Assembly (NCBI GenBank): GCA_043718785.1
Contig: JAYSVA010000426.1
Location: 1 to 44,031 of the forward strand
Length of the DNA stretch: 44,031 bases
Direction of reading: 5' to 3'
Source of the DNA: Hyphomicrobiaceae bacterium
GTDB taxonomy: Bacteria > Pseudomonadota > Alphaproteobacteria > Rhizobiales > Hyphomicrobiaceae
The notes beneath the pieces are model-generated. The model saw nothing but the letters and a program-made list of their open reading frames with translations. It made no database searches and had not been told where the DNA came from. This document shows positions 4,488 to 44,031 of the stretch, piece by piece (position 1 is the stretch's first letter; every line of letters begins with the position of its first letter). Position numbers and translations under genes: made by a program.

Positions 4488-6152
4488 TCAAACCCGCCCA
4501 TCCACCACCACGTCCAGCAATGTCGGGCCGCCGCTGGCGATGGACTCTTTGATGGCGGGGGCAATGGCGTCGGGGTCGGTGATGCGGATGGCTTTCATGC
4601 CGAACCCTTTGGCGATGGCGAGGAAGTCGATCCCCGGATTGGCGAAGTCCATGCCGACGAAGTGGTCGTTCTTGTGGTAGGCTTTTAGGCGCTGTTTGAT
4701 GATGCGGTAGCCGCCGTTGTTGCACAGCACGGTGGTGATTGGCAGCTTGTGGTGGGCGGCGGTCCACAGCGCCTGGATCGAGTACATGGCGCTACCGTCG
4801 CCGACGTAGGTGACAACCGGGCGGCCGGGTTGCGCCATCGAGATGCCGACCGATGCGGGCAGGCTCCAGCCGATGCCACCAGAGGCGAGGCCGTGGAAGT
4901 TATAGCGGTCGCGGTAGGCGAACAGGTCGCTGATCCGGCGCGACGTGGTCAGCCCTTCGTTGACGATGATGACGTCCTTCGGGCAGGCGTCCACTAGTCG
5001 CAGCGATAACAGATCAACGTCGATCGGTTTTGTGCCGGAGCGGGTTTCGATTGAGCTGACGAGGGTCTTGCGTTTGGCCGTCCAGTTCTGGCTGGCGAGT
5101 GCTTTCAGGCGCTCGACCGTGCGCTCCTTCATCGCCTTGCCACCGCGCTTTTCGAGCAGCGGGATTAGCGCCTTCAGCGTTTCGCGGACGTCAGCACGCA
5201 GCGCCATCTCGGCGTGGTAGTTCTTGGCCAGGTCCCAATCGACCAAGCCGATCTGGACCATCTTCAAAGTCTCCGGCATCGGATCGACGTCGCTGTAGAC
5301 GGACATGCGGATCGGGTCGGCGCCGAGCACGATCATCAGGTCGTACTTCGACAGCACGGCGCGGACATCTGGCTGCTCGCGGGTCAGGTAACCGACGTAG
5401 CACGGGCTCTCGGACAGGAAGTGCGAGCCGTAGGCGATGCTCTGCTGCATGGCGGGCGCGCCGATCAGCTCGGCGAACGCTGCTGCCTCCTTGAGGGCGT
5501 TGCTCTTGACGATCTCGTCACCGGCGACGATCAGCGGGCGCTCAGCTTTGAGAATGCGGTCAGCCAACGCTTCGAGCGCTGAATCGGATGGGCGAACGCA
5601 GCTGTCAACGCGGGTCGACGTGCCGAGATCAATGCCCGCCTCCGCGTTCAGAATATCGCCAGGCAGCGAGATGAACACTGGACCGGTTGGCGGCGTCATT
5701 GCCACTTTGGCAGCGCGGCGCATGATGCGCGGCAAATCCTCCAGACGCGTCACTTCGACGGCCCACTTCACCAGCGGCTGGGCAATCGGCACCAGCGGGT
5801 CATACAGCAGCGGCTCGGTTAGGCCGTGGCCTTGCTCCTGTTGGCCAGCTGTCAGGATCATCGGTGTGCCCGTAAACTTGGCGTTGTACAGCGAGCCCAT
5901 GGCATTGCCGAGACCCGGTGCAACGTGGACGTTGCACGCGGTCAGCTGGCCCGACGCGCGGCTGTAACCATCAGCCATCGCGACCACGAGGCTCTCTTGC
6001 ATCGCCATCACATAGGTGAGGTCCGGATGCTCCTTCAGGGCGTGCATCACCGGCAGTTCGGTGGTGCCGGGATTGCCGAACAGATGCGTCACCCCTTCGT
6101 CCTTGAGCAGCGCCAGAAATGCTGAGCGACCAGTGATATTGTTGCGGGGCAT
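4488..6152 (-). CDS. Thiamine-diphosphate-dependent decarboxylase, benzoylformate-decarboxylase-like
   Basis: 554-aa ORF. It has the N-terminal PYR-domain motif HLFGNPGTTELP and the ThDP-binding motif GDGSAMYSIQALWTAA...NNGGY. The overall pattern lines up with my recollection of Pseudomonas putida MdlC. Confidence 0.85.
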   Translation of the reverse strand: MPRNNITGRSAFLALLKDEGVTHLFGNPGTTELPVMHALKEHPDLTYVMAMQESLVVAMADGYSRASGQLTACNVHVAPGLGNAMGSLYNAKFTGTPMILTAGQQEQGHGLTEPLLYDPLVPIAQPLVKWAVEVTRLEDLPRIMRRAAKVAMTPPTGPVFISLPGDILNAEAGIDLGTSTRVDSCVRPSDSALEALADRILKAERPLIVAGDEIVKSNALKEAAAFAELIGAPAMQQSIAYGSHFLSESPCYVGYLTREQPDVRAVLSKYDLMIVLGADPIRMSVYSDVDPMPETLKMVQIGLVDWDLAKNYHAEMALRADVRETLKALIPLLEKRGGKAMKERTVERLKALASQNWTAKRKTLVSSIETRSGTKPIDVDLLSLRLVDACPKDVIIVNEGLTTSRRISDLFAYRDRYNFHGLASGGIGWSLPASVGISMAQPGRPVVTYVGDGSAMYSIQALWTAAHHKLPITTVLCNNGGYRIIKQRLKAYHKNDHFVGMDFANPGIDFLAIAKGFGMKAIRITDPDAIAPAIKESIASGGPTLLDVVVDGRV

Positions 6153-6187: not shown

Positions 6188-6301
6188 GTAGGTTGGGTCA
6201 AGCCCAATTGCGCGACCCAACATTACACGGGTGACTGTCAAAGTTGTTGGGTCGCGAGCCCGCATGTCGCAGGCTCCATGCGGACGCTTGACCCAACCTA
6301 C
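6188..6301. repeat. Nested-palindrome REP-like element, copy 1 (intergenic)
   Basis: The outer inverted repeat is a perfect 16 bp: gtaggttgggtcaagc (6188..6203) and gcttgacccaacctac (6286..6301). The inner inverted repeat is cgcgacccaac / gttgggtcgcg. There is also an extra small hairpin, ccgcatg...catgcgg. A second copy lies at 19811..19899. Confidence 0.85.
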
Positions 6302-6318
6302 GTCCGGGCACATTGATT

Positions 6319-7464
6319 TCATGATCCCCGCTGATCGAATTTGCGGTCGAAGACGCTCTCCGCGATGCGGTTCTTTAGGATTTCGATGGAGCCGCCAGCG
6401 ATCATCCAGCCACGAGTGCGGCGGACACAGTATTCGACCAAGCTGTCCTGGCTGAAACCGGCGCCACCCATGATCTGCAGGGCCTCATTGGCGACCTCGA
6501 AACCGGTGGTGTTACAGGCGAGCTTGGCGACCGCTGTGTCATAGGGCGAGGGCAGCTTATCGGGGCTATTGGCAGCGCGATAGAGCAGCAGCTGGGCTGC
6601 GTCGAGCTTCATCGCCATCTCGGCGAATTTCCATTGCAGGCCTTGGAACTCACACAGCGGACGGCCGAACTGGTTGCGGGTCATCGCATGATCGCGGGCG
6701 ATGTTGAAGGCGTGGCGGCCGACCGCCAGTGAGCGTGACGAATTGCCGAGCCGCTCGACATTGAAGCCAGAGATTTGCTTTTTGAAGCCGCCGGGCCCCA
6801 GAAGCACGTTGGCCTTGGGGATGCGGCAATTGTCGAAGTACAGTTGCGCCCACTGTTCGCCGTTCATGAAGTTGGTCGGGCGGCCGATGGTGAAACCCGG
6901 CGTGTCGCGCTCAATCAGCACCGAGCCAATGCCGCCGACACCCGGCCCGAAGCGGACGTAGATGAGGAACAAGCCAGCCTCGGGACTGTGGGTCGAGAAC
7001 ACCTTGGTGCCGTTGATTAGAAAGTCGTCGCCATCCGGTTTGGCTGACGTTTGCAGGTCGGTGACGGCGGATCCGGCTTCCGGCTCGGTCATGCCGAGGC
7101 TGATCAGTTTGCGGCCGCCTAGCAGGTCCGGCAGGAAGCGCTGTTTCTGCTCCGGTGTGGCGTATTCAACGAAGGTGCGGATGGGTCCGAAGTTGCCAGC
7201 TTGGACGATGTCAGCACTTTTTGGGCAGACCAGGGCGATCTCCTGGATGGCGATGACCGCGTCCATCAGCGAGCCGCCCATGCCGCCATCGGATTCCGAA
7301 AACAAGATGCCAAGCAGGCCTTGCCCACTCAGTTGCTTGGCGGTTTCCCAGGGGTAGCTGGTGGCATGCGCACGGGCCAACGCGTCGGTGGCAAGGTTGG
7401 CTTTCGCGAACCGCCGGACGCTTTCAGCAAAGGCGGTTTGCTCTTCGGTTAGCTGGAAATCCAT
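6319..7464 (-). CDS. Acyl-CoA dehydrogenase
   Basis: The ORF-track frame is 6319..7581. I place the start at the internal ATG 7464 (MDFQLTEEQTAFAESVRRF...), which gives a typical 381-aa ACAD and has a G-rich RBS upstream. ACAD patterns are present throughout (GMTEPEAGS, ...QIMGGAGFS...). Confidence 0.9.
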   Translation of the reverse strand: MDFQLTEEQTAFAESVRRFAKANLATDALARAHATSYPWETAKQLSGQGLLGILFSESDGGMGGSLMDAVIAIQEIALVCPKSADIVQAGNFGPIRTFVEYATPEQKQRFLPDLLGGRKLISLGMTEPEAGSAVTDLQTSAKPDGDDFLINGTKVFSTHSPEAGLFLIYVRFGPGVGGIGSVLIERDTPGFTIGRPTNFMNGEQWAQLYFDNCRIPKANVLLGPGGFKKQISGFNVERLGNSSRSLAVGRHAFNIARDHAMTRNQFGRPLCEFQGLQWKFAEMAMKLDAAQLLLYRAANSPDKLPSPYDTAVAKLACNTTGFEVANEALQIMGGAGFSQDSLVEYCVRRTRGWMIAGGSIEILKNRIAESVFDRKFDQRGS

Positions 7465-7594
7465 CGTCGCGCGCCGCCCCCTCACTTGATCTTCGCAATA
7501 TGGTGCCACAGTCCGCTCTGATTGGAACCCTAGGAATTGCGCGGCAGGATTGTCGGCAGCGCTGGTCACCCAAGGTGACAACAGGTTGCGATCC

Positions 7595-15229: not shown

Positions 15230-16513
15230 ATGACGACACCACAAAACACTGGGCAAAGTTCCGGGCGCTATTCGGGGCTGCGGCTGCTGATGGAAGCGCT
15301 GCGGGGCAACCGCGGCTGGTCGGCGGCGTGGCGCGATGCGAGCCCGCAAGCTGCTTATGACGTGGTCATTGTCGGCGGCGGTGGGCATGGTCTCGCGACG
15401 GCGTACAACCTCGCCAAGCAGCACGGTATCACCAACGTCGCGGTGGTCGAAAAGGGCGTGATTGGCCTTGGCAATGTCGGGCGTAACACCACGATCATCC
15501 GCTCGAATTACTTCTCAGCCGAGAACATTCGGTTCTATGACGCCTCGCTGAAGCTGTGGGAGCGGTTCGAGCAGGAGCTCAACTTCAACGCCATGGTGAG
15601 CCAACGGGGCACCCTCAATCTGGTGCATTCCGATGGCCAGCGCGACCTGTTCGCCCGCCGGGCCAACGCCATGCGGCTGGAGGGCGTCGATGTCACCTGG
15701 CTGGATAAGGCGGCGGTGAAAGCCAAGGTGCCGCTGATCGAGACGGAACAGGGCCGCTATCCGGTGCTCGGCGGATTTTTCCAGCAGCGCGGGGGTACGG
15801 TGCGTCACGATGCGGTGGTGTGGGCCTATGCCCGGGCGGCGAGTGCGCTGGGCGTCGATATCATCCAACACTGTGAAGTGACCGGCGTGCAGCGTGACGG
15901 CGATGCCGTCGCCGGGGTGGAGACCACGCGCGGCGTCATCAAGGCCAGGAAGGTGCTATTCGCGGTCGCTGGGCATTCGTCGCGGCTGGCCGAGATGGCC
16001 GGGTTCCGGCTGCCAATTGAGACGCACGTGCTGCAGGCCTTCGTCACCGAGAGCATCAAGCCCTGCCTCGATTGCGTCGTGACCTACGGTGCCGGGCACT
16101 TCTACGTCAGCCAGTCGGATAAGGGTGGGCTGGTTTATGGCGGCGCCACGGACGGCTACAACAGCTACGGCCAACGCGGCACTATGCCGATGGTCGAGGA
16201 GGTGCACGCTGCCGGTCGGACACTGATGCCGGCGCTGTCGCGGCTGCGTGTCCTGCGGCAGTGGGGCGGGGTGATGGACATGTCGATGGACGGCAACCCG
16301 ATCATATCGACGACGCCGGTGCGCAACCTCACGATCAATGGCGGCTGGTGCTATGGCGGCTTCAAGGCGATTCCTGCGGGCGGCATGGTGACGGCGCATC
16401 TGGTGGCGACTGGCCAGCCCCACCCGCTGGCCAGCCATTTCGGCCTCGACCGCTTCCGCTCTGGCCACACCATCGACGAGCGCGGTGTCGGCCCTTATCC
16501 GTGGATGCATTAA
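15230..16513 (+). CDS. soxB: Heterotetrameric sarcosine oxidase, beta subunit
   Basis: 427-aa ORF. The stretch RYSGLRLLMEALRGNRGW...YDVVIVGGGGHGLATAYNLAKQHGITNVAVVEKG...GRNTTIIRSNY matches the SoxB N-terminus and FAD-binding fold. Confidence 0.9.
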   Translation: MTTPQNTGQSSGRYSGLRLLMEALRGNRGWSAAWRDASPQAAYDVVIVGGGGHGLATAYNLAKQHGITNVAVVEKGVIGLGNVGRNTTIIRSNYFSAENIRFYDASLKLWERFEQELNFNAMVSQRGTLNLVHSDGQRDLFARRANAMRLEGVDVTWLDKAAVKAKVPLIETEQGRYPVLGGFFQQRGGTVRHDAVVWAYARAASALGVDIIQHCEVTGVQRDGDAVAGVETTRGVIKARKVLFAVAGHSSRLAEMAGFRLPIETHVLQAFVTESIKPCLDCVVTYGAGHFYVSQSDKGGLVYGGATDGYNSYGQRGTMPMVEEVHAAGRTLMPALSRLRVLRQWGGVMDMSMDGNPIISTTPVRNLTINGGWCYGGFKAIPAGGMVTAHLVATGQPHPLASHFGLDRFRSGHTIDERGVGPYPWMH

Positions 16514-16516
16514 ATC

Positions 16517-16798
16517 ATGCTGCAAATCAAATGCCCACATTGCGGCCCGCGCGACGAGGCTGAATTCCGCTATCGCGGCGATGCGACGCTGACGCGCCCG
16601 GCTGTCGATGCAGGTATCAATGCGTTCGCGTCGTACGTGTTCGAGCGTGCCAATCCGGCAGGTTGGCAGACCGAGTGGTGGCAGCATGCCCACGGCTGCC
16701 GCGCGGTGCTGAAGGTGGTGCGGCACACCCTGACGCACGAGATCTCTGGCGTGGGGCTGCCGGGCGAGACGCTGGCGGTGCCGGAGGGGGCGGCATGA
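16517..16798 (+). CDS. soxD: Sarcosine oxidase, delta subunit
   Basis: 93-aa ORF. MLQIKCPHCGPRDEAEFRYRGDA...WWQHAHGCR is the SoxD zinc-ribbon pattern. The gene sits in the canonical position between soxB and soxA. Confidence 0.9.
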   Translation: MLQIKCPHCGPRDEAEFRYRGDATLTRPAVDAGINAFASYVFERANPAGWQTEWWQHAHGCRAVLKVVRHTLTHEISGVGLPGETLAVPEGAA

Positions 16799-19683
16799 GT
16801 GGATTTCGGCTGCCGAACGGCGGCACAAACATCAACCGCGACCAGTCGATGCGGTTCCAGTTCGACGGTAAGTCATATGCAGGATATCAGGGCGACACGC
16901 TGGCGTCGGCACTGCTAGCGAACGGCGTGCGGCTGACGGGACGAAGCTTCAAATATCACCGTCCGCGCGGCATCGTCACAGCCGGGTTAGAAGAGCCGTG
17001 CGCACTGGTCGAGATGGCAGCCGGGGCATGGCGCACGCCTAATCTGCCCGCAACCGCTGTCGAGCTGTTCGATACGCTGACGGTCACGAGCCAGAACCGG
17101 TTTCCATCGCTGCGTTACGATCTGATGGCGGTGAACGGGTTGATGGCTCCAGCGCTATCGGCGGGCTTCTACTACAAGTCGTTTATGTGGCCAGCGAAGT
17201 TCTGGGAGCGGATTTACGAGCCTGTCATCCGTCGCGCTGCCGGGCTTGGACGGCTGGCGAAGGGGGCGGTCGATGACCGCTATGACCATCAGCACCACCA
17301 TTGCGATGTGCTGGTGGTCGGCGCTGGCCCGGCTGGATGGGCTGCGGCGGCTATCGCTTTGGCCGGCGGACAACGCGTGATGGTGGTCGAGCAGGACAAC
17401 ATGCCCGGTGGCGGCTATCTGACAGCGCCAGCCATCGGCTTTGACAGCACCAAAGCGGCTGCGGGTTTTATCAGCTTTCCGAACGCTCAACTGCTCACGC
17501 GTACGGCGGTAATCGGCGCATACGATGGCGTGTTTGCAGCCGTTGAGCGGCACAGGCCCGGATTACCTGCCCGCGAAACCCTGCACATCATCCGTGCCCG
17601 CCAGACGATCTTGGCAACCGGGGCGGTGGAGCGGCTGATCGCGTTTCCGGATAACGACCGGCCCGGGGTGATGCTGGCGTCGGCAGCGCGGGCGTACCTG
17701 AACCGCTGGGGCGTGGCGGTCGGGCGGCGCGTGGCGCTGTTCGCCAACAACGATGAGGCCTATCAGACGGCGCACGAGCTGCGGGCGGCTGGCGTTGAGA
17801 TTGCGGCGATCATCGATCCGCGACCGGAGTCGTGGGTGGCAGCAGCAGCGATCAAGGCGGGCATCCGCGTGCTGCTGGATGAGGAGGTTTATAGTGTCGG
17901 CTACAGCCGGTCGCGCGGCCTGTACGAGGTCCACACCCGCCGTCGCGGCGACCAGGGTGGCGTGCCCGTCGCCTGCGATACGCTGCTGGTCTCCGGCGGC
18001 TATTCTCCGCAAGTGCAGCTGGCAACGCAGGCCGGTGCCAAGCTGGCCTGGGATGACCGCATTGCCGGGTTCGTGGCGGGTGCAACGGCAACCGTCCGAA
18101 CGGCAGGGGCCGCGCGCGGCGTGTATGGTCTGGCTGAAGCTATGGCAGATGGTGAGGCCGCAGGGCGGGGGGAGGCGACGGAACCGGTGCCACAGCACAC
18201 CCCCATGCTGCCATTCTGGGAGGTCCGGGTTGGCAGCGGGGCGAAGTCGTTTGTCGATCTGCAGCATGATGTGACGGCTGCCGACATGCGGCTGGCGCAT
18301 CAAGAGGGCTATTCGCATGTTGAGCATGCGAAGCGGTACACCACGCATGGCATGGGCACCGATCAGGGCAAGATCGGTGGGCTCGTTGGCTCGGCGGTGT
18401 TGGCGGCGGCGCGTGGCGCGGCGCTGGCGGAGGTGGGTCTGTCAAAGCCACGACCGTTCACCCAACCAGTGTCGTGGGGGGCGCTGGCCGGGCCGGACGT
18501 GGGCCATCATTTCAAGCCGCAACGGCTGCTGCCGCTACACGACTGGCACACGCGGAACCACGCCGTGTTCGTCAAAATTGGCCTGTGGATGCGGCCGCTG
18601 GTGTATTCGGCGACGGGTGATACCAGCTGGGGGCCGGTGCTGGCGGAGGCGCGCGCCGTGCGCCGCTCGGTTGGCGTCACCGATATGTCGTCGCTCGGCA
18701 AGATCGACGTGCAGGGGCCTGATGCGGGCCAATTCCTCGACCGCATTTATGCGAACACGTTCTCAAGCCTGCCAGTAGGCCGTGCCCGCTACGGCATCAT
18801 GCTGCGCGAGGACGGCATGATGCTGGATGACGGCACCACGGCGCGGCTCGGTGAGCAGCACTTTCTGGTGACCGCTACAACCCAGAAGGCCGCTGATGTG
18901 CTGGAGCATATGGAGTGGCATCTGGCGACCGTCTGGCCCGAGCTTGACGTGACTTTGACCAACGTCGCCGATCAGTGGGCGCAGTTTGCCATCGCCGGGC
19001 CGCAGGCGCGGAAGGTGGTGGAGAAACTGGTCACGGGGCGTGCGGTGACGAACGAAGCGTTCCCTTTCATGGCGGCGGGCGAGGCGACCATCGCCGGTGT
19101 CGCTGGTCGGTTGTTCCGCATCTCGTTCTCAGGTGAGGCGGCATACGAGGTGGCCGTGCCCGCGCAGCACGCTGAGGCGGTATGGGTTGCCATTCTGGCC
19201 GCAGGCAACGCGTTCGATATCGTGCCGTATGCGCTGGATGCGCTTAACTTGATGCGGATCGAGAAAGGCCATGTCACCGGTGGCGAAATCAACGGCCAGA
19301 CCACGGCGGCCGACCTCGGCTTTGGTAAGATGCTGAAGAAAAAGGGCGATTTCGTTGGCAAAGCGCTGAGCCAGCGTGATGGTCTGCTCGATCCCAAACG
19401 GCTACAACTGGTCGGCATCACGCCGGTCGATACGGCGAAGCGGCTGCGTGGCGGCGGGCATCTGGTGGGGCTTAGCGGGGCTGGGCCAAGCCAGGGTTAC
19501 GTGACCGCCGCCTGCATGACATCGGAAGGCGAGGGCTGGATCGGCTTAGCGCTACTGAACGGTGGCCATAGCCGCTACGGCGAGCGACTGATTGCCGCCT
19601 CGCCCGTATTCGATGAAGTCGTCGAAGTTGTGATCAGCAGCCCCCATCGCCTCGACCCGGAGAATGCCCGTGTCAAAGCCTAA
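16795..19683 (+). CDS. soxA: Sarcosine oxidase, alpha subunit
   Basis: The ORF-track frame starts at 16663 and overlaps all of soxD. The ATG at 16795 forms an ATGA overlap with the soxD stop and gives MSGFRLPNGG...FQFDGKSYAGYQGDTLASALLANGV, a typical SoxA N-terminus. The C-terminal half resembles the GcvT folate-binding domain. Confidence 0.9.
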   Translation: MSGFRLPNGGTNINRDQSMRFQFDGKSYAGYQGDTLASALLANGVRLTGRSFKYHRPRGIVTAGLEEPCALVEMAAGAWRTPNLPATAVELFDTLTVTSQNRFPSLRYDLMAVNGLMAPALSAGFYYKSFMWPAKFWERIYEPVIRRAAGLGRLAKGAVDDRYDHQHHHCDVLVVGAGPAGWAAAAIALAGGQRVMVVEQDNMPGGGYLTAPAIGFDSTKAAAGFISFPNAQLLTRTAVIGAYDGVFAAVERHRPGLPARETLHIIRARQTILATGAVERLIAFPDNDRPGVMLASAARAYLNRWGVAVGRRVALFANNDEAYQTAHELRAAGVEIAAIIDPRPESWVAAAAIKAGIRVLLDEEVYSVGYSRSRGLYEVHTRRRGDQGGVPVACDTLLVSGGYSPQVQLATQAGAKLAWDDRIAGFVAGATATVRTAGAARGVYGLAEAMADGEAAGRGEATEPVPQHTPMLPFWEVRVGSGAKSFVDLQHDVTAADMRLAHQEGYSHVEHAKRYTTHGMGTDQGKIGGLVGSAVLAAARGAALAEVGLSKPRPFTQPVSWGALAGPDVGHHFKPQRLLPLHDWHTRNHAVFVKIGLWMRPLVYSATGDTSWGPVLAEARAVRRSVGVTDMSSLGKIDVQGPDAGQFLDRIYANTFSSLPVGRARYGIMLREDGMMLDDGTTARLGEQHFLVTATTQKAADVLEHMEWHLATVWPELDVTLTNVADQWAQFAIAGPQARKVVEKLVTGRAVTNEAFPFMAAGEATIAGVAGRLFRISFSGEAAYEVAVPAQHAEAVWVAILAAGNAFDIVPYALDALNLMRIEKGHVTGGEINGQTTAADLGFGKMLKKKGDFVGKALSQRDGLLDPKRLQLVGITPVDTAKRLRGGGHLVGLSGAGPSQGYVTAACMTSEGEGWIGLALLNGGHSRYGERLIAASPVFDEVVEVVISSPHRLDPENARVKA

Positions 19684-20290
19684 CACCCTTCACGTTGAAC
19701 CATCGGGGCTGCTCGAAATCGCGGCCCGGCGCGGGCAGCTGGCGGTGCTGTCGGCGTTGCTTGAAAGCAAAATCGGTATCGGATTTCCTGGGCCTGGGCG
19801 TGCCACAGCCGTAGGTTGGGTCAAGCCCTCTCGCGCGATCCAACATTCCACGGGTGGTCGTGAAGTTGTTGGGTCGCGCCAAAGCTTGACCCAACCTACA
19901 GGCACTGGGCTCTGGATCGGGCCGGAGCGGGCGCTGCTGCTGGCCGACGCGTTGACGATTGCGGCCGTTCGGGAGGCAGTGACACCCGCCCGTGCAGCAT
20001 TGATCGACCAGACGAGCGGTTACGTTGTCTGGCAGCTGGCTGGCCCTGACGCCCGCCGCGTGCTGGCCCGACTTTGCCGCATCGATCTTGATGAGAGCGT
20101 ATTTGGCATTGCTCACGTCGCCCGCACGATCATGGCGCAGATCCCAACGATTCTACAGATGATTGACGACCGCCCGACTTTCCGGCTGATTGTTCCCAGC
20201 ACCCTCGCCCGCGCCTTCGGCGAAAGCATTGAACTTGCCGCTGGTGCTAGCGGCATCGACCTTCACACCAAGTCCGAGCTAGCCCCATGA
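19664..20290 (+). CDS. soxG: Sarcosine oxidase, gamma subunit, carrying an in-frame repeat-element insertion
   Basis: 208-aa ORF in the canonical position after soxA. A SoxG-like segment is present (...GLWIGPERALLLAD...). Codons for roughly AVGWVKPSRAIQHSTGGREVVGSRQSLTQPTGT are supplied by the repeat at 19811..19899. The stop overlaps the next gene's start as ATGA. Confidence 0.75.
   Translation: MPVSKPNTLHVEPSGLLEIAARRGQLAVLSALLESKIGIGFPGPGRATAVGWVKPSRAIQHSTGGREVVGSRQSLTQPTGTGLWIGPERALLLADALTIAAVREAVTPARAALIDQTSGYVVWQLAGPDARRVLARLCRIDLDESVFGIAHVARTIMAQIPTILQMIDDRPTFRLIVPSTLARAFGESIELAAGASGIDLHTKSELAP
19811..19899. repeat. Nested-palindrome REP-like element, copy 2 (inside the soxG reading frame)
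   Basis: It has the same perfect 16-bp outer inverted repeat (gtaggttgggtcaagc / gcttgacccaacctac), a similar inner inverted repeat (cgcgatccaac / gttgggtcgcg) and the same orientation as copy 1. It lacks the ~25-bp extra hairpin segment of copy 1. Confidence 0.85.
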
Positions 20291-22704
20291 AAACCCAAGC
20301 GCGTGTTGTCATTATCGGTGGTGGCGTGGTCGGCTGCTCGGTGCTGTATCACCTGGCGAAAGCCGGGTGGAAGGATCTGGTGCTGCTCGACAAGAACGAG
20401 CTGACGTCGGGGTCAACGTGGCATGCGGCGGGCGGGGTCACGACGCTGAATTCCGACGCGAACGTGTCGAAGCTGCAGAAGTACACGTTCGACCTGTACC
20501 GCGAACTGGAGACGGTGACCGGCCAGTCGTGCGGCATCCACCACAACGGCGGCATTTATCTGGCGGCGACTGATGGCCAGATGGACTTTCTCAAGCTGAT
20601 TCACAGCCGCGCCCGCTATCTCAGAATGGAAACCGAGCTGATCTCGGCGGCGGATGCGAAAAAGCGCAACGTGCTGATTGCCGACAAGTACTTCAAGGGG
20701 GCGCTGTGGCGTGAGGACGGCGGCTATGTCGATCCGTGGTTGGTGACGCAGGCCTATGTGACGGCGGCTAAGGCACTGGGAGCCGAGGTTGAGCGCTTCA
20801 CCAAGGTAACGGCACTCGATCAGAAGCCAACCGGCGATGGTTGGACCGTGACGACCGACAAAGGCACCATCCAGGCCGAGCACGTGGTCAACGCGGGCGG
20901 CCTGTGGGCGCGGGAAGTTGGCCGCCTGGTTGGCTTAAATCTGCCGGTGCTGGCGATGGAGCACCACTACATCGTCACCAACCCCGTGCCGGAGCTGAAG
21001 GGGCTATCGAAGGAAATCATCAACACCTCGGATTTTGAGGGCGAGATCTACCTGCGCCAGGAGGGCCAGGGCGTATTGCTTGGCACCTACGAGCAGGCCT
21101 CGCGACCGTGGGCCGAGCGCGTCACGCCAGATGACTTCCACAGCCAGCTGCTGCCGAACGATTTGGACCGGATTACGCCGGAGCTGGAGCGCGGGTTCAA
21201 GCATTTCCCGGCGCTGTCGAAGGTTGGCATCAAGAAGGTGGTCAACGGCCCGTTCACGTTCGCGCCGGACGGCAATCCGCTGGTCGGTCCGGTGAAGGGG
21301 TTGCCAAACTACTGGCTGGCCTGCGCTGTGATGGCAGGCTTCAGCCAGGGCGGTGGCATCGGTCTGGTGCTGTCGCGCTGGATGACTGAGAGCGATCCAG
21401 GCCAAGACGTGCTGGCGATGGACGCCGCCCGGTTCGGTAGCTTTGCAACGCCGAAATACACGCGCATCAAAGTGGAGGAGAACTATCGTCGCCGGTTCCG
21501 TCTTGCCTACCCGAACGAAGAAATGCCCGCCGCACGCCCGTTTCGCCAGTCGCCGGTGTATGGGCGGCTGAAAGCCAAGGGCGCGGTGTTTGGGGCCAAT
21601 TTCGGGCTGGAGAACGCGCTCTGGTTTGCGCCGCCCGGCATTGCCCCGGAAGAGACGCCGACCTATCGCCGCTCGAACGCGTTCCCCTACGTGAAAGCCG
21701 AGTGCCAAGCGGTGCGCAAAAGCGTCGGGCTGTATGAAACCACGAACTACGGCAAGTACGAAATCGTTGGGCGTGGCGCGCGGAAATGGCTGGACCGGGT
21801 GTTCGCGTGCCGCATCCCGAAACCCGGTCGCATGGGCATTGCGCCGATGTTGAACGCGCGCGGCCGGATTATGGGCGATCTGTCGATCGCCTGCCTCGCC
21901 GAGGACCGGTATCTGATTGTTGGTTCTGGCTTTGCCGAGGCGTTCCATATGCGCTGGTTTGCCGGTTCGAAACCGCCCGATGATGTGTTTATTCGCAGCG
22001 CTTGCTCAACGTTGGCAGGCTTTGCGCTGTCCGGCCCGAACGCCCGGAACTTGCTGCAGAAACTGGTCGAGGTCGATATCAGCAACGATCAATTCAAGTT
22101 TTTCGGCGTGACGGAGACCGCGGTCGGCATGTCGCCGGCGGTCATTCAGCGTTGCGGCTTTACGGGTGAACTGGGCTATGAAATCTGGGTGACGCCGGAC
22201 TACCAAGTGCAGCTGTACGAGGAGCTGTTGGACGCGGGCGCGGAATTCAATCTCGCGCACTATGGCGGGCGGGCGATTTCGTCGCTGCGGCTGGAGAAAA
22301 ACTACGGCTCGTTCAACAAGGATTTCCGGCCGGATTACACTCCCGGCGAAACCGGGCTGGATGCGTTTATCGACTTCACCAAGGGCGATTTCGTCGGCAA
22401 AGCGGCGGCGGTAAAAGAGAAGGAAAACGGCGCCGCAAAGAAGTTCGTGATGATGGTGGTTGACGCCCCGCATGCCGATGTGGTCGGCTATGAAGTGGTG
22501 CTAAAGGACAACGTTCCGGTTGGCCACGTGACGTCAGGCGGGTACGGCCATTGCGTCGGCAAGAGCTTAGCGGCGTGCTACGTGCCGACCGCGCTGGCGA
22601 ACGACGGCGAAACCTTCATTATCGATATCCTCGGCGAGCATTGTACGGCAACGATCACAGGTTCCGCCCTGCATGACCCCAAAGGTGCTAGGTTGCGCGC
22701 ATGA
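20287..22704 (+). CDS. Dimethylglycine/sarcosine-dehydrogenase-family flavoenzyme with a C-terminal GcvT-type folate-binding domain
   Basis: 805-aa ORF. It has an FAD fold (VVIIGGGVVGCSVLYHLAKAG), the covalent-FAD histidine context SGSTWHAAGG, and an aminomethyltransferase-like C-terminus (GFTGELGYEIWV). ATGA overlaps are present at both ends. Confidence 0.85.
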   Translation: MKTQARVVIIGGGVVGCSVLYHLAKAGWKDLVLLDKNELTSGSTWHAAGGVTTLNSDANVSKLQKYTFDLYRELETVTGQSCGIHHNGGIYLAATDGQMDFLKLIHSRARYLRMETELISAADAKKRNVLIADKYFKGALWREDGGYVDPWLVTQAYVTAAKALGAEVERFTKVTALDQKPTGDGWTVTTDKGTIQAEHVVNAGGLWAREVGRLVGLNLPVLAMEHHYIVTNPVPELKGLSKEIINTSDFEGEIYLRQEGQGVLLGTYEQASRPWAERVTPDDFHSQLLPNDLDRITPELERGFKHFPALSKVGIKKVVNGPFTFAPDGNPLVGPVKGLPNYWLACAVMAGFSQGGGIGLVLSRWMTESDPGQDVLAMDAARFGSFATPKYTRIKVEENYRRRFRLAYPNEEMPAARPFRQSPVYGRLKAKGAVFGANFGLENALWFAPPGIAPEETPTYRRSNAFPYVKAECQAVRKSVGLYETTNYGKYEIVGRGARKWLDRVFACRIPKPGRMGIAPMLNARGRIMGDLSIACLAEDRYLIVGSGFAEAFHMRWFAGSKPPDDVFIRSACSTLAGFALSGPNARNLLQKLVEVDISNDQFKFFGVTETAVGMSPAVIQRCGFTGELGYEIWVTPDYQVQLYEELLDAGAEFNLAHYGGRAISSLRLEKNYGSFNKDFRPDYTPGETGLDAFIDFTKGDFVGKAAAVKEKENGAAKKFVMMVVDAPHADVVGYEVVLKDNVPVGHVTSGGYGHCVGKSLAACYVPTALANDGETFIIDILGEHCTATITGSALHDPKGARLRA

Positions 22705-24269
22705 CCGAAACCTCCTCCCCTGAGATACCACCGATTCCGGCTGCCCCGAAACGCCGCGACCGTACCAAGCCGGTGCGCTCGGTCGGGCCGAGCCTCGCGC
22801 CGATCCAGCGGCTGACCAACCGCTGGGCGCCCATTGAGATCCTCACGTCCGAGCAGGTCGAGCGCATCCTCAACGCCGCGTTCCGGATTCTGGCGGAGGA
22901 TGGCCTCGAGATCCGCAACGAGGTGGCGCTGGAGATTTATCGCAAGGCCGGCTGCTTGGTGGATGATGTCACCCAGGTGGTGCGTATTGGCCGCGATATC
23001 GTCGAGGCGATGCTGGCGCATGTACCTGCCAGCTTCGTGCTGCACGCCCGTAACAGCACGCGCGATCTGCATGTCGGCGGTTCCGTCGTCAATTTCGGGC
23101 CGGTCAACGGCGCGCCGCACATCACGGATATGGATGGGGGGAGGCGGTATGGCGATCACGCTGCGTTCCGCGATATCCTCAAGATCACGCATACACTGGG
23201 CATTCTGCATTGGCAGGGTGGCGTGGTGGTGGAGCCGGTTGATCTGCCGGTGCCGGTGCGGCATCTGGCAATGTACCGCTCGCATATCGAGCTCTCGGAT
23301 CTCGTGTGGGCCGCGCGCGGCGTCGGTGGTGTGCAGGCGGCGGATGCCATCGCAATGTCGGCGATTGAGCACCAATGCTCCGTTGAGGATTTGGGCCGCC
23401 GCCCGACGCTGATGACGGTCACCAACGTCAACTCGCCGCGCCGCGTCGATGCCGAAATCCTCGACAATATCATGACGATGGCCGGTGCCGGGCAGTGTGT
23501 GGTGATTACACCATTCACGTTGATGGGGGCGATGGCCCCCGTCACGCTGGCGGGGGCGCTGGTGCAGCAGACGGCCGAGGCGCTGGGCATCATTGCGCTG
23601 TGCCAAATGGTGCGCCCCGGTGCGCCATGCGTGATGGGTGGGTTCACCTCCAACGTTGACATGCGCACGGGGTCGCCGGCATTCGGCACGCCGGAGTATG
23701 TCAATGCAACCTTGGCCACAGCACAGCTCGGCCGCCGCCTCAAGATTCCGGTGCGGACGTCGGCCGTGAATGCGTCGCCCGTGGTCGATGCGCAGTCGAC
23801 GTATGAGACGGCGTTCTCGCTATGGGCGGCAATTATGAGCCACAGCCACTTGATCAATCACGCGGCGGGGTGGTTGGAAGGCGGGCTGTCGGCCTCGATG
23901 GAGAAAATTATCGTCGATGCCGAGCTGCTGCGCGGGTGGGCGGAAATCCTCAAGCCGATTGAGTTCACCGATGATGACATCGGCATTGATGCGATCAAGG
24001 GTGTGCCGCCAGGTGGGCATTTCTTCGGCTCACCGCACACGATCGCGCGCTATGAGAATGCGTTTTACCGGCCGCTGCTGTCGGACTGGACCAATTTTGA
24101 AACCTGGACCGAGGCGGGCAGCAAAAACGCTACCGACCGTGCACGCGAGCTGTGGAAGAAGATGCGCGACCAATACGTGCCGCCGCCGCTTGATCCGGCA
24201 ATAGCTGAGGCGCTCGACGCCTACGTGGCCAAACGTCACGAGGAGATCGGACGCGCCCCGGTTGCGTAA
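22701..24269 (+). CDS. MttB-superfamily (trimethylamine methyltransferase-like) protein, non-pyrrolysine type
   Basis: 522-aa uninterrupted ORF with no in-frame TAG. The pattern LTSEQVERILNAAFRILAEDGLEI...EIYRKAGC... continues through to the C-terminal ...AIKGVPPGGHFFGSPHT..., which is characteristic of MttB-family proteins. Confidence 0.8.
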   Translation: MTETSSPEIPPIPAAPKRRDRTKPVRSVGPSLAPIQRLTNRWAPIEILTSEQVERILNAAFRILAEDGLEIRNEVALEIYRKAGCLVDDVTQVVRIGRDIVEAMLAHVPASFVLHARNSTRDLHVGGSVVNFGPVNGAPHITDMDGGRRYGDHAAFRDILKITHTLGILHWQGGVVVEPVDLPVPVRHLAMYRSHIELSDLVWAARGVGGVQAADAIAMSAIEHQCSVEDLGRRPTLMTVTNVNSPRRVDAEILDNIMTMAGAGQCVVITPFTLMGAMAPVTLAGALVQQTAEALGIIALCQMVRPGAPCVMGGFTSNVDMRTGSPAFGTPEYVNATLATAQLGRRLKIPVRTSAVNASPVVDAQSTYETAFSLWAAIMSHSHLINHAAGWLEGGLSASMEKIIVDAELLRGWAEILKPIEFTDDDIGIDAIKGVPPGGHFFGSPHTIARYENAFYRPLLSDWTNFETWTEAGSKNATDRARELWKKMRDQYVPPPLDPAIAEALDAYVAKRHEEIGRAPVA

Positions 24270-40336: not shown

Positions 40337-43300
40337 ATGTCGATCTTTCAGCGCATTGTGGGTTCTAGCAAAGTTATGAAGTCCGCTAAGGACGCTGACG
40401 TAACTGTTGCTGCCTCGCGGCATCGGCTGGTTTACCGTGCTCTTGAGCCACGTATGGTGTTTGACGCGGCCATGCAGGCGACCATTGCTGAAGCCTCTGC
40501 GACTGATAATACCGTGATCGCCGACCCGGTTAGCCAAGTGGTCCCGCCGACGCAGGATATGGCGGTCGTTCAGGCGCTGTCGGACATTGCGGCGGCAGCC
40601 GGGGCGGGGATGTCTGCGGTCACAGGCGGCGAAACGTTCGTTTTCGTTGATCCTCGCGTTGCGAATTTTCAGGATATCGCCTCGGCGCTGCCCGCCGGCG
40701 CAACGATTGTGATGCTAAACAGCGAAGTGGGCGGATTCGAGCAAATCGCTGCCTACCTTGAAGGGCGCACGAATGTTGCTGGCATTCAGATTTTCTCGCA
40801 CGGCTCAGCGGCGCACCTGCAATTGGGTGCGGACATTCTGGATAATACGAATGTCGCGGAGCACACCGCCGCACTTCAGCAAATTGGCTCTGCTCTGAGC
40901 GAAAATGGCGATATCTTGCTCTATGGCTGCGATATTGCGGCCGGAAACGACGGGTTGCAATTCATCGAAGCGCTTGCTGCCCTCACCGGTGGCGACGTTG
41001 CGGCATCGACCGACGCAACAGGTGCCGCTGGCCTCGGCGGCGACTGGATTCTCGAATTGTCGACCGGCGCGATTGAGAACGCTGTGGTTGCCGCGCCCGA
41101 TTACGGTGCATTGCTGGCGCTCGTCGCGGCCAATGACGTCGCCACCGTTCAGGCCAATGCGACAGTCGGCGTCAACGGTAACGTTTTGACCAACGACACC
41201 GGAACGGGCGCGAGGACCGTGACTGAGGTGCATGGCCGTGCCACGTCAGTCGGGGTGGCGTACGCGACGTCGTACGGGTCAATCACGATGAATGCTGACG
41301 GCACATACGTCTATACTGTGAACGTCAACAATGCCACTGTTCGTGAACTTGCTGCCGGTCAAACGATTACCGACATCATTTCTTACACGGCGCGGGATAC
41401 AACAACCGCTTTGCCCGATTTTGGCTATTTGACGGTGACAATCAATGGTGTGACGGATGCGCCTTTGGCATTTGACAACTTTGGTTCGGTCACTCCGGGC
41501 ACTGTGCCCACAAGTTCCGGCAACGTGCTGCTGGACGCAGGCGCGGGCGTCATCGATAGTATTGACCGGCCACAATCGCAGTTCCGATGGGAAAACCTAT
41601 ACGCGAACGGTGCAACGATTGTTGGCAACCAAACTGTTGATGGCGTTGGCGTTGCGGTGACAACGACAAACGCTTCGGGCATTTCTTACACGGCAGTTGC
41701 GCAGACCACTGCAACGCAGGGTGGCCATACTGGTTATGCAGCGCTCACGATTGATCCGACAGTGCTTGTGTATACCGCCCCTACAGTCGGGTTCGCATTT
41801 GCGCAACCCGTCATAAACCTCTCATTTGGTCTCCTTGACGTCGATAGTGGCGCGCCGAGCTGGCAAGACCAAGTGACCATCACTGGTACACGTGGCGGTG
41901 TCCCTGTCGCTTTCACAGCGCAATTCTCAGGATATGACACGCGGGCAGGCAACTCATTTTTCGGCAACAACGGTGGCGTCGGCAATACTGATGCGCTCGG
42001 CAATATCGTCATTGTCTTCAGTGGCGCTGTCGATAACGTCGTTATCGCTTACAATGACGGCCCTGGCGCGACCGCTGCAAACCCAGGCGGCCATCTAGTC
42101 GGGATTACGGATCTAACCTGGCAGAACCCGAACGCGGTCACCACGATCCAGATTGCCGGCACGACGGTGCCTGTCGGTGGCGTTACCGTCGCAACACTGT
42201 ATGGCAGCATCACCATGCAGCCGAGCGGATCGTATGTTTACACCGTTGATCCGACCAACCCGGCGGTTATCGCATTGCCGACTGGCGCAACGTTGATCGA
42301 CAGCATCCCTTATACAATCCGGGATGCGCTGCTTCAGACCGCCAGCGCGTTTCTCAGCATCACTGTCAATGGTGTTAACGAGGTGCCAGCCCTGGATCTT
42401 GACGCGAACAATTCATCGGGCGTCACGGGTTCCGGCTATACAGCCACTTACGTTGAAAATGGCGCAGGTGTCAGCATTGCCGATGCCGACACCGCAATTG
42501 CTGATCTTGATACATCCAGCTCTATTGCGTCCGCGACCATCGTGCTGACGAACCGCCAAGTTGGCGACGTATTGAACGTTGGCGTATTGCCAGCTGGTGT
42601 GACTGCCGTGATTGACACGTCAAATCCGGCGAGCGTTTCCGTAACCCTGACCGGGGTTGATAGCAGGGCTAACTACGCCAGCTTCATCAATGCAATCCGC
42701 TTCTCTAACACGTCGGACGCATTGGTTGGAGTTGATCGGAACATCACCGTTGTTGTCAACGACGGCATCGCCAATTCAAATGTTGCTACGTCAACTATTA
42801 GAGTTACCCCCGTCAACGACGCGCCGGTTTCGACGGTGCCCGCAGCCCAGACCACGCTCGAGGACACAGCGCGTGTATTCTCTGCAGCCAACGGTAACGC
42901 TATCACGATCAGCGATATTGATGCAGGCACCGTCGGTGTGCAGACGGTGGCCTTGTCAGTTGCGCGCGGCACACTTACGCTTGGTGCAACAACCGGACTG
43001 ACTGGCTTAACCGGCAACAGCACGGGTACGATCACGTTTACCGGCACCGTCGCCCAGGTTAACGCGGCTATGGACGGCCTTTCGTATCTGAATACGGCTG
43101 ACTACAACAGCACCGGTTCAGGCACGGCGGGGGCTGATGTTCTTACGGTGAGCGTCAGAGATGACGGCCGGGACTCCGGCGTGTTGGCAACCAATGGTGT
43201 TCAAACTGGGCTTGTCCGGACTGTCGATATCAACATCACCGCCGTTGCCGATATCACCGACGATACGCTGACGACGCTTGAAGACACGGCCGTCGTATTC

Positions 43301-44031
43301 AATGCTATCACCGGCACTGCAGGAGCCACGGTCGATAGCTTCGAGAATGCCGGGCGTGCTGTGACCGCGGTCACACAAGGCGCGCGTGGCACAGTCACCT
43401 TCCTGGCCAACGGTCAGATCACCTACACACCAAATCCGAATACTAACGGCCCGGATACGTTCACCTATACCGTGACGTCTGGTGGAGTTTCGGAGACTGC
43501 AACCGTTACGGTCAATGTCACGCCCGTCAACGACGTGCCTGTCGCCGTGAACGACATTGCATCGACACTCGAAGACACGCCAATCACAATCCCCGCTACA
43601 ACGCTGTTGTTGAACGACACCGATCTTGACGGCGATGCATTGACGATCACATCGGTGCAGGCACCCGTCAACGGCACTGTTGCGCTGGTCGGCGGCAATC
43701 CGGTGTTCACGCCGACGCCGAACTACAACGGCCCGGCGAGCTTCACCTACACCATCTCTGACGGCAACGGCGGCACCGCGACCGCAACCGTCAACATCAC
43801 TGTCACACCTGTCAATGACCCACCGGTCGCGGTCAACGACATCGGCTCGACGCCGGAAGATATTGCGATCACGATCCCGGCTACGACGCTGCTCTCGAAT
43901 GACACAGATATTGATGGCGATACACTCACCATCACCTCCGTCCAGGGTGCAGTCAATGGTACGGTCACGTTGGTTGGCGGCAACCCCGTGTTCACGCCGA
44001 ACGCCAATTACAACGGCCCGGCAAGCTTCAC
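40337..44031 (+). CDS. Giant secreted repeat adhesin, 5' part only (DUF4347-type N-domain, VCBS repeats, tandem-95/cadherin-like repeats); runs off the right edge
   Basis: Absent from the ORF track because there is no stop in the window. I verified by hand that the frame is open from the in-frame TGA at 40118..40120 onward. Candidate starts are ATG 40337 or ATG 40376 ([32 protein letters not shown]...). The DUF4347-like block runs [16 protein letters not shown]...[15 protein letters not shown]...[39 protein letters not shown]...GGDWILE. VCBS-type units are [16 protein letters not shown]...[10 protein letters not shown] and [16 protein letters not shown]...DSIPYTIRD. Repeated VTPVNDxPVAVND...LLxNDTDxDGDxLTITSV... 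modules follow. Confidence 0.85.
   Translation, partial: [1231 protein letters not shown]
43517..44031 (+). repeat. Tandem 285-bp (95-codon) coding repeats inside the adhesin gene
   Basis: Unit starts are gtcacgcccgtcaacgac at 43517 and gtcacacctgtcaatgac at 43802, a period of exactly 285 nt. The encoded units are near-identical ([48 protein letters not shown]... versus [48 protein letters not shown]...). More diverged modules begin near 42797 and 43231. Confidence 0.85.

Follow-up and report, generated by a model that had tools for sequence, protein, structure and literature searches.

Our analysis of a contig from a Hyphomicrobiaceae bacterium (JAYSVA010000426.1, assembly GCA_043718785.1), the whole 44,031 nucleotides of which we refer to as the window, indicates that a soxG-like gene carries within its reading frame an 89-bp nested palindrome that belongs to a dispersed family of bacterial repeats. 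We propose that this element is a REPIN, that is, a hairpin-forming doublet of two inverted repetitive extragenic palindromes (REPs), of a family associated with REP-associated tyrosine transposases (RAYTs), that it entered the gene in frame and only once, and that it was later flipped in place in one of the lineages that inherited it; we put the probability of this account as a whole at roughly 0.8. An initial annotation of the same DNA had described the palindrome and the peptide that it adds to SoxG, and its coordinates prove exact, the open reading frame (ORF) passing through the element without a stop codon and the peptide reading as quoted there. It had also likened the element to the Rickettsia palindromic elements (RPEs), and of this comparison only one part stands: the in-frame behaviour is indeed shared, but the element itself is a REP doublet of the GTAG type (a REPIN, or "HH dimer") from a RAYT-associated family.

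The element (GTAGGTTGGGTCAAGCCCTCTCGCGCGATCCAACATTCCACGGGTGGTCGTGAAGTTGTTGGGTCGCGCCAAAGCTTGACCCAACCTAC) begins with the G of a GTAG at 19811 and ends with the C of a CTAC at 19899, and its parts are listed in Table 1. Each half consists of GTAG, an 8-bp stem GTTGGGTC, a loop of 12-14 nt, the returning stem GA(T/C)CCAAC and a final A, 33-35 nt in total, and the two halves are inverted with their GTAG ends outward around a spacer of ~22 nt, the sequence of which reveals the orientation of the element (related spacers occur in L111, L112, L090, L053 and L099). Both halves are short imperfect palindromes with a 5' GTAG, as a REP unit should be, and together with the short spacer they make one long hairpin, as a REPIN should. 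Inverted arms can be recognised at two levels, the outer ones at 19811-19835 and 19875-19899 (25 nt, 84%) and the inner ones at 19828-19845 and 19867-19884 (18 nt, 83%), while the window contains four occurrences of the terminal 16-mer GTAGGTTGGGTCAAGC, in both arms of two elements, where 0.19 are expected. The strong RNA hairpin anticipated by the initial annotation is borne out: the 89-nt element by itself has a folding energy of -58.5 kcal/mol (z -9.1), and a 101-nt region with short flanks reaches -65.3 kcal/mol, whereas shuffled sequences give -30.9 +/- 3.4 (z -10.05, with none of 200 shuffles as good). An element of this kind, made of two inverted GTAG-tagged REPs of a RAYT-associated family, is a REPIN.

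Other readings of the hairpin were considered and set aside. No Rfam 15 family reaches its gathering score anywhere in the window, and the eukaryotic miRNA-precursor models that appear in a permissive Rfam scan score 16-31 bits where 48-100 are required, as generic hairpin matches do. A terminator scan gave no site at the element, and the sequence that follows the hairpin, AGGCACTGGG, contains no U-tract, which rules out an intrinsic (Rho-independent) terminator.

Within the soxG ORF the element encodes ...RATA-VGWVKPSRAIQHSTGGREVVGSRQSLTQPT-GTGLWIGPE..., its own codons being VGWVKPSRAIQHSTGGREVVGSRQSLTQP together with the first two bases of a Thr codon, or about 29 residues; the predicted tryptic peptides of the insert region are AIQHSTGGR, EVVGSR and QSLTQPTGTGLWIGPER. 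Only the frame GTA GGT TGG of the soxG copy is free of stops, the second frame being interrupted by a TAG at the very left and the third by a TGA within the spacer.

Filled and empty versions of the same site are found among the close relatives of the gene. There are seven close SoxG homologues, all from JGI metagenomes, which together with the window make eight alleles. The orthologue alignment places an insert of 25-27 residues exactly between ...PG(R/S)A and (A/G)LWIGPE, in agreement with the earlier proposal that the insertion lies between the LP/GPG region and GLWIGPE, where SoxG normally has a short linker. In the DNA alignment the filled alleles (window, P0002, P0003, P0004, P0157 and P0158, the last two being cluster members on syntenic contigs of up to 31 kb) contain the full GTAG...CTAC element, and the empty alleles (P0005, P0006 and P0007) lack precisely the insert, with a clean gap. 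More broadly, the stretch from PG to LWIG measures 16 residues in 59 of ~80 SoxG-family representatives and 41-43 residues only in four filled alleles; since the 16-residue form prevails in the family, the short form is ancestral and the insert derived. Searched against 1.84 billion representative proteins, the cluster in its entirety is represented by the empty P0007, and the relative that comes next is only 47% identical. Profile scans of genome and metagenome contigs returned no further SoxG relative; the lineage is known from JGI metagenome contigs only. The insertion had been expected to be unique to one lineage; it is instead common to several diverged ones.

All of these alleles are intact. 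Outside the insert the ratio of nonsynonymous to synonymous divergence (dN/dS) lies between 0.13 and 0.28 for every pair, filled or empty, and the synonymous divergence (dS) between filled lineages is about 0.75-0.86. Intact alleles and low dN/dS at a dS of ~0.8 mean that selection on the gene was not relaxed while the lineages carrying the insertion diverged substantially, and the possibility that soxG is a pseudogene, which the initial annotation had named as a threat to its reading, is removed by the same figures.

The junctions can be compared to the nucleotide. The element itself measures 89 nt, and the net gain relative to the empty sites is 81 nt (27 codons) in the window, 75 nt in the lineage of L001 and 78 nt in L002. 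The right junction is identical in the three filled lineages, where the element ends in ...CCTAC, its terminal AC forms a Thr codon with 1 further nt, and three codons then lead to LW. At the left junction two (window), zero (lineage of L001) or one (L002) of the ancestral linker codons are kept. As a separate observation, two of the three empty sites (L003:~250-290, L006:~725-765 and L007:~440-480) show GCAGGT or ATAGCG at the position of the GTAGGT of the element, followed by (G/A)C as at the element end; this could reflect a GTAG-like target preference or could be coincidence, the number of sites being three.

A structural model puts the insert in a tolerant place. AlphaFold2 with 81 sequences predicts the protein with a mean local confidence score (pLDDT) of 90.7 and a predicted template-modelling score (pTM) of 0.83; the insert, at about residues 50-80, has a pLDDT of 60-67 and no secondary structure, and the flanking strands 46-49 and 80-86 reach 95 or above. 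A Foldseek search with this model finds 1vrq_C and 2gag_C as the best folds in the PDB (E about 2e-12, TM 0.70-0.77), and the ORF itself aligns with 3ad7_C, 1vrq_C and 2gag_C (E 3e-9 to 1e-7) beginning right after the insert. In the model, then, a short beta-turn is widened into a loop between two strands; the insert is hydrophilic and probably disordered, and we would expect the loop to be exposed at the surface, tolerated and selectively neutral. Going by the reading frame, the conservation and the model, the insert appears to be translated and tolerated rather than destructive, with the fold, the translational coupling and purifying selection all kept.

The repeat appears to be dispersed, as had been suggested. 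A second copy of the family lies in an intergenic region of the window, 17 nt after the stop of the gene at 6319-7581 and 36 nt before the start of that at 4488-6152, so that two copies occur in 44 kb, one of them intergenic, and in GTDB species genomes at least 120 stretches contain the 16-mer GTAGGTTGGGTCAAGC. These belong mostly to Hyphomicrobiaceae and other alphaproteobacterial soil metagenome-assembled genomes (MAGs), and related MAGs are multi-copy, with several loci each in CAVTAS01, JANMVX01, JANYHF01 and CAWHBI01. Within the 16-mer loci listed (~0.9 Mb of sequence) we found 86 doublets. A REP-spacer-REP template fits 62 of them, with loops of 10-15 nt and spacers of 16-32 nt (mode 22), and total lengths are shared evenly among the residue classes modulo 3. 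Conservation across the family ends exactly at GTAG and CTAC, with a pyrimidine at position -1 in 87% of ends, and in 45 of 61 copies the flanking direct repeat is 0 nt long, the remainder having 1-3 nt, which is the chance level. The absence of a target-site duplication argues against a classical miniature inverted-repeat transposable element (MITE) and fits the single-strand HUH chemistry of RAYTs. A literature search with GTAGGTTGGGT gave unrelated primer matches only. In the second copy of the window the loop of the right REP holds an extra small hairpin, CCGCATG...CATGCGG, which recalls the "GCGG/CCGC-type loops" of Bradyrhizobium GTAG-14 REPs (PMC3733652).

Among the 86 sampled doublets the soxG locus is the sole verified coding copy, which makes an intragenic position exceptional for this REP family. 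In 22 of the 86 some frame stays free of stops for 40 codons or more to either side, and the ten longest ORFs that span an element show no Pfam domain on both sides of it; they look, from their sequences, mostly like antisense or frame-shifted ORFs or read-through of 5' leaders. The apparent doublet in L092 seems to be a chance match, two mismatches being allowed, within an ordinary protein-like ORF. In a long-read MAG (L039:3-2597, minus strand) the frame of malate synthase G is lost after the TIM-barrel domain and a REPIN is then read through; this is probably an assembly indel and not a coding REPIN. A protein search with a 60-residue join of the insert in both orientations returned one word-sharing candidate, without a score.

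The association with RAYTs comes from REPs beside transposase genes in other genomes. In a Brocadiaceae MAG (L117) a RAYT gene is preceded by GTAGGTTGGGTCAAGCGTAGCAGACCCAACA and has the identical head on its far side, and in an uncultured alphaproteobacterial MAG (L264, found with a DNA pattern combining the REP and an NPV motif) the RAYT gene is bracketed by GTAGGTTGGGTCGAGCCCTTGCGAGACCCAACA and its inverse; GTAGGTTGGGTCGAGCCCTTGCGAGACCCAACA at L264 is all but identical with the left REP in soxG, and GTAGGTTGGGTC... REPs border the genes in both MAGs. The two proteins score 199-201 bits against NCBIfam NF047646, "REP-associated tyrosine transposase" (cut-off 80), and match Pfam Y1_Tnp as well. 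Since the same type of REP stands beside these RAYT genes, we regard the REP class as RAYT-associated. A search with a single RAYT protein returned anammox and gammaproteobacterial relatives only. A search with an alignment of the RAYT clade, which has the motif KDWQRHM, gave at least 600 genes, and the clade occurs in at least 600 GTDB species of Cyanobacteria, Beta- and Gammaproteobacteria, anammox Planctomycetota, Nitrospirota and others; the best 80 of these genes, which we sampled (L136-L215), include no alphaproteobacterium. Most of the 80 are bordered by GTAGGTTGGGTT or GTAGGTCGGGTT REPs (GTAGGT[TC]GGGT[TC]), and since these heads vary by one or two bases only, the REP recognition sequence appears to be conserved across phyla. 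Upstream of a Scalindua RAYT gene (L129:1501-1745) the last 14 codons of the gene are found a second time, together with its flanking REPs, from which it appears that the duplicated unit of the REPtron reaches into the 3' end of the gene; the locus was also considered as a RAYT gene interrupted by a REP, and this was rejected, what lies upstream being only the duplicated 3' end.

How could a repeat of this kind come to lie within an enzyme gene and remain there? In other REPtrons the GTAG guides cleavage at a nearby CT or CA by a single-strand HUH mechanism (PMC8266576). By the same route, the REPs of the soxG element would be recognition sites of a RAYT, an IS200/IS605-like HUH enzyme that would act on single-stranded DNA and leave no target duplication. 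One REPIN copy would have entered the short turn that joins two SoxG beta strands, before the conserved (A/G)LWIGPE strand, landing in the sole stop-free frame of the element (GTA GGT TGG GTC...), and ~8 nt of target would have been lost or overlapped, giving a net gain of 81 nt, or 27 codons. Most likely this happened once, in the ancestor of the filled lineages; 0-2 further codons at the left junction would later have been lost, differing by lineage, and in one lineage the element would have flipped in place between its inverted arms.

The copy in L002 suggests this last step. It matches the window copy at 84% without gaps only as the reverse complement, the forward alignment giving 73% with gaps, and the loops of its two REPs are swapped, consistent with inversion; the middle of its peptide differs and the ends VGWVK...TQPT are kept. 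Such an outcome is natural in that the element is palindromic, so that a flip preserves length, frame and the terminal residues VGWVK...TQPT. The soxG copies are mutually nearest among the ~80 sampled (94%, 88% and 84%, all of 89 bp and gapless) and nearer to one another than to the second copy of the window, which together with the common right junction favours one insertion followed by a flip in place. Close relatives of the L001 allele on four further contigs (L310-L313, Table 1) also have the soxG REPIN. There the right-hand GTAG is mutated (...CCTTC, changing QPT to QPS) an inner stem position has changed, and the peptide shows a V-to-D change, from which we conclude that the element is drifting, and in this sub-lineage it is decaying or immobilised; the 16.7 kb of L310 contain no REPIN other than the soxG copy.

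Several points weigh against the account just given. The 44-kb window contains no RAYT gene by tblastn, and the cognate transposase was seen in other organisms only, so that a RAYT in the source genome is something that we infer. A tree built from the eight alleles is star-like, without support for a monophyletic group of filled ones, and the window groups with the empty L003 at a bootstrap of 46-87% depending on the partition; the gene tree being uninformative, a single origin rests on the element and its junctions and not on the tree. The window and L001 elements differ at 5 of 89 nt, compared with 18.7 expected from the 21% divergence of their flanks (P about 5e-5), and so low a divergence could indicate recent independent insertions or gene conversion instead of old orthology. 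L002 is a short contig from a metagenome assembly, but a flip introduced by assembly is unlikely because the L002 copy also differs at 14 positions. An AlphaFold run with 7 sequences was uninformative (mean pLDDT 46) and was set aside for the 81-sequence model, and translation of the insert is a prediction from sequence and model.

Some of these points would be natural if the soxG linker were a hot spot into which similar REPINs inserted two or three times, once each in the window lineage and in that of L001 and in opposite orientation in L002. Besides the lack of monophyly, the unequal net inserts (81, 75 and 78 nt), the 94% identity of the window and L001 elements at a flanking dS of ~0.8, as insertions younger than the lineages would show, and the opposite orientation of L002 would then find a ready explanation; the GCAG and ATAG at the GTAG position of two of three empty alleles hint at a GTAG-like target, and different REPs are known at about the same site of recB in two Xanthomonas species (PMC3733652). 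Yet the three lineages agree in their right junction down to the nucleotide phase, their copies all measure 89 bp and need no gaps in the alignment, the soxG copies are closer to each other than to ~80 other sampled copies, the second one of the window included, and the flank logo shows no target preference beyond the pyrimidine at -1. Intragenic copies are, moreover, very rare (no other was verified among 86 doublets), and given this rarity three insertions within the same 20 nt of linker would call for a strongly specific target, so that we consider recurrent insertion unlikely. A little less likely again is that the element was selected for a function, either as an RNA hairpin of the operon (a processing site, a barrier to 3' exonucleases or a translational pause) or as a useful surface loop of SoxG. 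Its conservation far above the synonymous rate (5 differences where 18.7 are expected), the hairpin of ~-58 kcal/mol kept by all three diverged copies, the inverted one included, the concentration of substitutions in loops, spacer, small apical hairpin and G-U positions, and the proposal that transcribed REPs act on mRNA (PMC3733652) would all suit such a function. Set against this, the genes of three sister lineages that lack the element are just as constrained, neither a U-tract nor any other sign of a terminator is present, the element of L310-L313 is drifting (GTAG mutated, stem position changed), and the conservation of REPs can be explained as well by RAYT recognition, gene conversion or young age.

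Two further explanations can be dismissed with more confidence. The segment might be an ancestral part of SoxG whose palindromic look is fortuitous and which shorter homologues have lost, and its presence in four of the eight close alleles could be cited in favour; however, the same sequence occurs in an intergenic region of the window and at 120 or more stretches of other genomes, the short form is found in 59 of ~80 SoxG representatives and the long form in none outside the cluster, and the PDB chains of SoxG align only from the residues just after the insert. Being absent from the empty alleles and repeated at other loci, the segment is not ancestral, as the initial annotation had also supposed, and we regard this explanation as the most improbable of all. 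Hardly more credible is a classical MITE, that is, a deletion derivative of an insertion sequence with a DDE transposase, mobilised through its 16-bp terminal inverted repeats: these repeats are perfect and the element is small, but a target-site duplication is absent, each arm is itself a GTAG-tagged hairpin of the kind that singly flanks RAYT genes, and the spacer and loops vary where the REP stems are fixed.

Returning to a REPIN inserted once and carried along, we may ask what has held its sequence so constant. The differences between the window and L001 copies leave the stems unchanged save for one G-U/G-C position, the rest falling in loops, spacer and small apical hairpin, and a hairpin of about -58 kcal/mol is kept by all three diverged copies, inverted or not. 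Selection on structure, recognition by a RAYT, gene conversion, or an age younger than that of the lineages could each account for this slow divergence. By analogy with other transcribed REPs, it is plausible that the predicted transcript hairpin affects mRNA stability, processing or ribosome transit. We offer only tentatively, and with some doubt, the stronger idea that a REPIN long kept in a coding region (flanking dS ~0.8), its hairpin intact and its orientation reversed without a break of frame, is under selection for nucleic-acid structure within an ORF. If this were true, REPINs would be orientation-neutral, frame-preserving insertion modules, with their structure selected either as an RNA processing or stability element inside the operon or through continued interaction with a RAYT.

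Table 1. Location of the soxG element and its parts, of its host operon and of related copies; positions are those of the window unless a contig is named.
Feature	Position	Strand	Description
Whole element	19811-19899	+	89-bp REPIN (REP doublet), nested palindrome, hairpin-forming, in frame in soxG
Left REP	19811-19845	+	GTAG 19811-19814; stem GTTGGGTC 19815-19822; 14-nt loop AAGCCCTCTCGCGC 19823-19836; stem GATCCAAC 19837-19844; final A
Spacer between REPs	19846-19867	+	about 22-23 nt, includes CCACGGGTGG; small apical hairpin in fold
Right REP, inverted	19868-19899	-	stem GTTGGGTC 19868-19875; 12-nt loop GCGCCAAAGCTT 19876-19887; stem GACCCAAC 19888-19895; CTAC 19896-19899 (GTAG on the minus strand)
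soxG-like gene	19664-20290	+	208 codons, ATG 19664; homologues called from GTG 19670
soxB	15230-16513	+	DAO domain
soxD	16517-16798	+	PF04267
soxA	16663-19683 (ORF)	+	TIGR01372, 1129 bits; likely start further downstream
DMGDH-like FAD/folate enzyme	20287-22704	+	downstream of soxG, overlapping stop/start
MttB-family methyltransferase	22701-24269	+	after the DMGDH-like gene, overlapping stop/start
Second REPIN, same family	6188-6301	+	114 bp, intergenic, between two minus-strand genes
soxG REPIN in relatives of the L001 allele	L310:6259-6347; L311:3175-3263; L312:366-454; L313:2280-2368		

The host gene is tightly packed in its operon, its start overlapping the soxA stop and its own stop overlapping the next ATG, and the gene row soxB-soxD-soxA-soxG is syntenic in L310-L313. 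The soxG ORF reaches 55 bits with the TIGR01375 soxG model, below the cut-off of 143.95, and its homologues are named in JGI either as a sarcosine oxidase gamma subunit or as a methylglutamate dehydrogenase subunit. Judging by these matches, the predicted fold and the gene context, the protein is a SoxG-fold gamma subunit of an amine oxidase or dehydrogenase of the SoxBDAG type, an enzyme for which sarcosine, methylglutamate or another N-methyl amine are candidate substrates. Elsewhere in the window, a plus-strand frame at 42800-44031 that runs off the window end consists of tandem repeats of ~95 residues (VTPVNDxPVA...T(L/P)EDT, with a DNA period of 285 nt) and looks, by its repeat pattern, like a fragment of a giant adhesin of the cadherin/VCBS type.

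More generally, filled and empty sites, outgroup polarity, purifying selection and a loop model combine at this locus to illustrate how an enzyme subunit can gain a stretch of peptide from a non-autonomous element. Both the inverted copy and the slow divergence of the element bear on how a REPIN persists at a fixed locus, whether by selection on structure, gene conversion or re-insertion. For annotation, the case implies that a REP or REPIN can be genuinely coding, and that neither masking such repeats nor placing gene boundaries at them should be automatic.

The element has close counterparts among known repeats. REP doublets that form hairpins are called REPINs by Bertels and Rainey in 2011 (PMC3116915), and the soxG family shares with these REPINs and the "REPtrons" (PMC3116915; Ton-Hoang/Corneloup et al., PMC8266576) the inverted REPs with a spacer, the outer GTAG and, as far as the sampled genomes show, a multi-copy, dispersed and almost always extragenic distribution, as well as the absence of target duplication and, in other genomes, the same REP beside single-copy RAYT genes. 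The model systems are Pseudomonas, E. coli, Stenotrophomonas and Marinomonas, whereas the family with the GTTGGGTC stem is found mainly in Hyphomicrobiaceae and other alphaproteobacterial MAGs; and, unlike the model REPINs, the soxG copy is intragenic and coding, fixed across diverged lineages, and inverted in one of them. Di Nocera, De Gregorio and Rocco reported in 2013 REPs lying wholly inside ORFs in many species, over half of these intragenic REPs being dimers or groups that add 20-30 residues, as inferred by alignment to shorter homologues (PMC3733652). In-frame REP insertions beyond Rickettsia are therefore documented, and the statement of the initial annotation that such colonisation is rarely noted elsewhere overstated its novelty. 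In the terms of that survey the soxG element is a GTAG-type HH dimer, of about 29 residues. Neither soxG nor its host lineage is among the cases listed there, the text-form supplementary files containing neither "sarcosine" nor the stem sequence; our family may be identical with its GTAG-14 class of Bradyrhizobium and R. palustris, the consensus of which is given in a figure only; and orientation polymorphism at an orthologous site and evidence from dN/dS are not part of the survey (PMC3733652).

The other relevant comparisons are with the Rickettsia elements and with MITEs. In RPEs a palindromic repeat lies in frame in genes, frequently intragenic, and adds a peptide at an insertion-tolerant region while the gene stays functional; the families run from RPE-1 to RPE-8, as reportedly described by Ogata et al. 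in 2000. The soxG element behaves in the same way, being in frame, adding a peptide and leaving the gene functional, but it belongs to a different family and host clade, its tag is GTAG where RPE-4 and RPE-6 are CGTC-type REPs (PMC3733652), and its family has one intragenic locus among ~80 sampled. Membership of the soxG element in the RPE families is unlikely. Bacterial MITEs, such as the Correia elements of Neisseria and the cyanobacterial Nezha, have terminal inverted repeats and target-site duplications. With them the soxG element shares small size, non-autonomy, terminal inverted repeats, hairpins in transcripts and an occasional in-frame position; it differs from them in having no target-site duplication, in arms that are autonomous REP hairpins, and in its association with a Y1/HUH enzyme instead of a DDE transposase. 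The soxG case is a further example of a phenomenon known for REPs and RPEs, and its most noteworthy features are the reversed orientation, probably by a flip, at a junction that is otherwise conserved and how slowly the element diverges within coding sequence.

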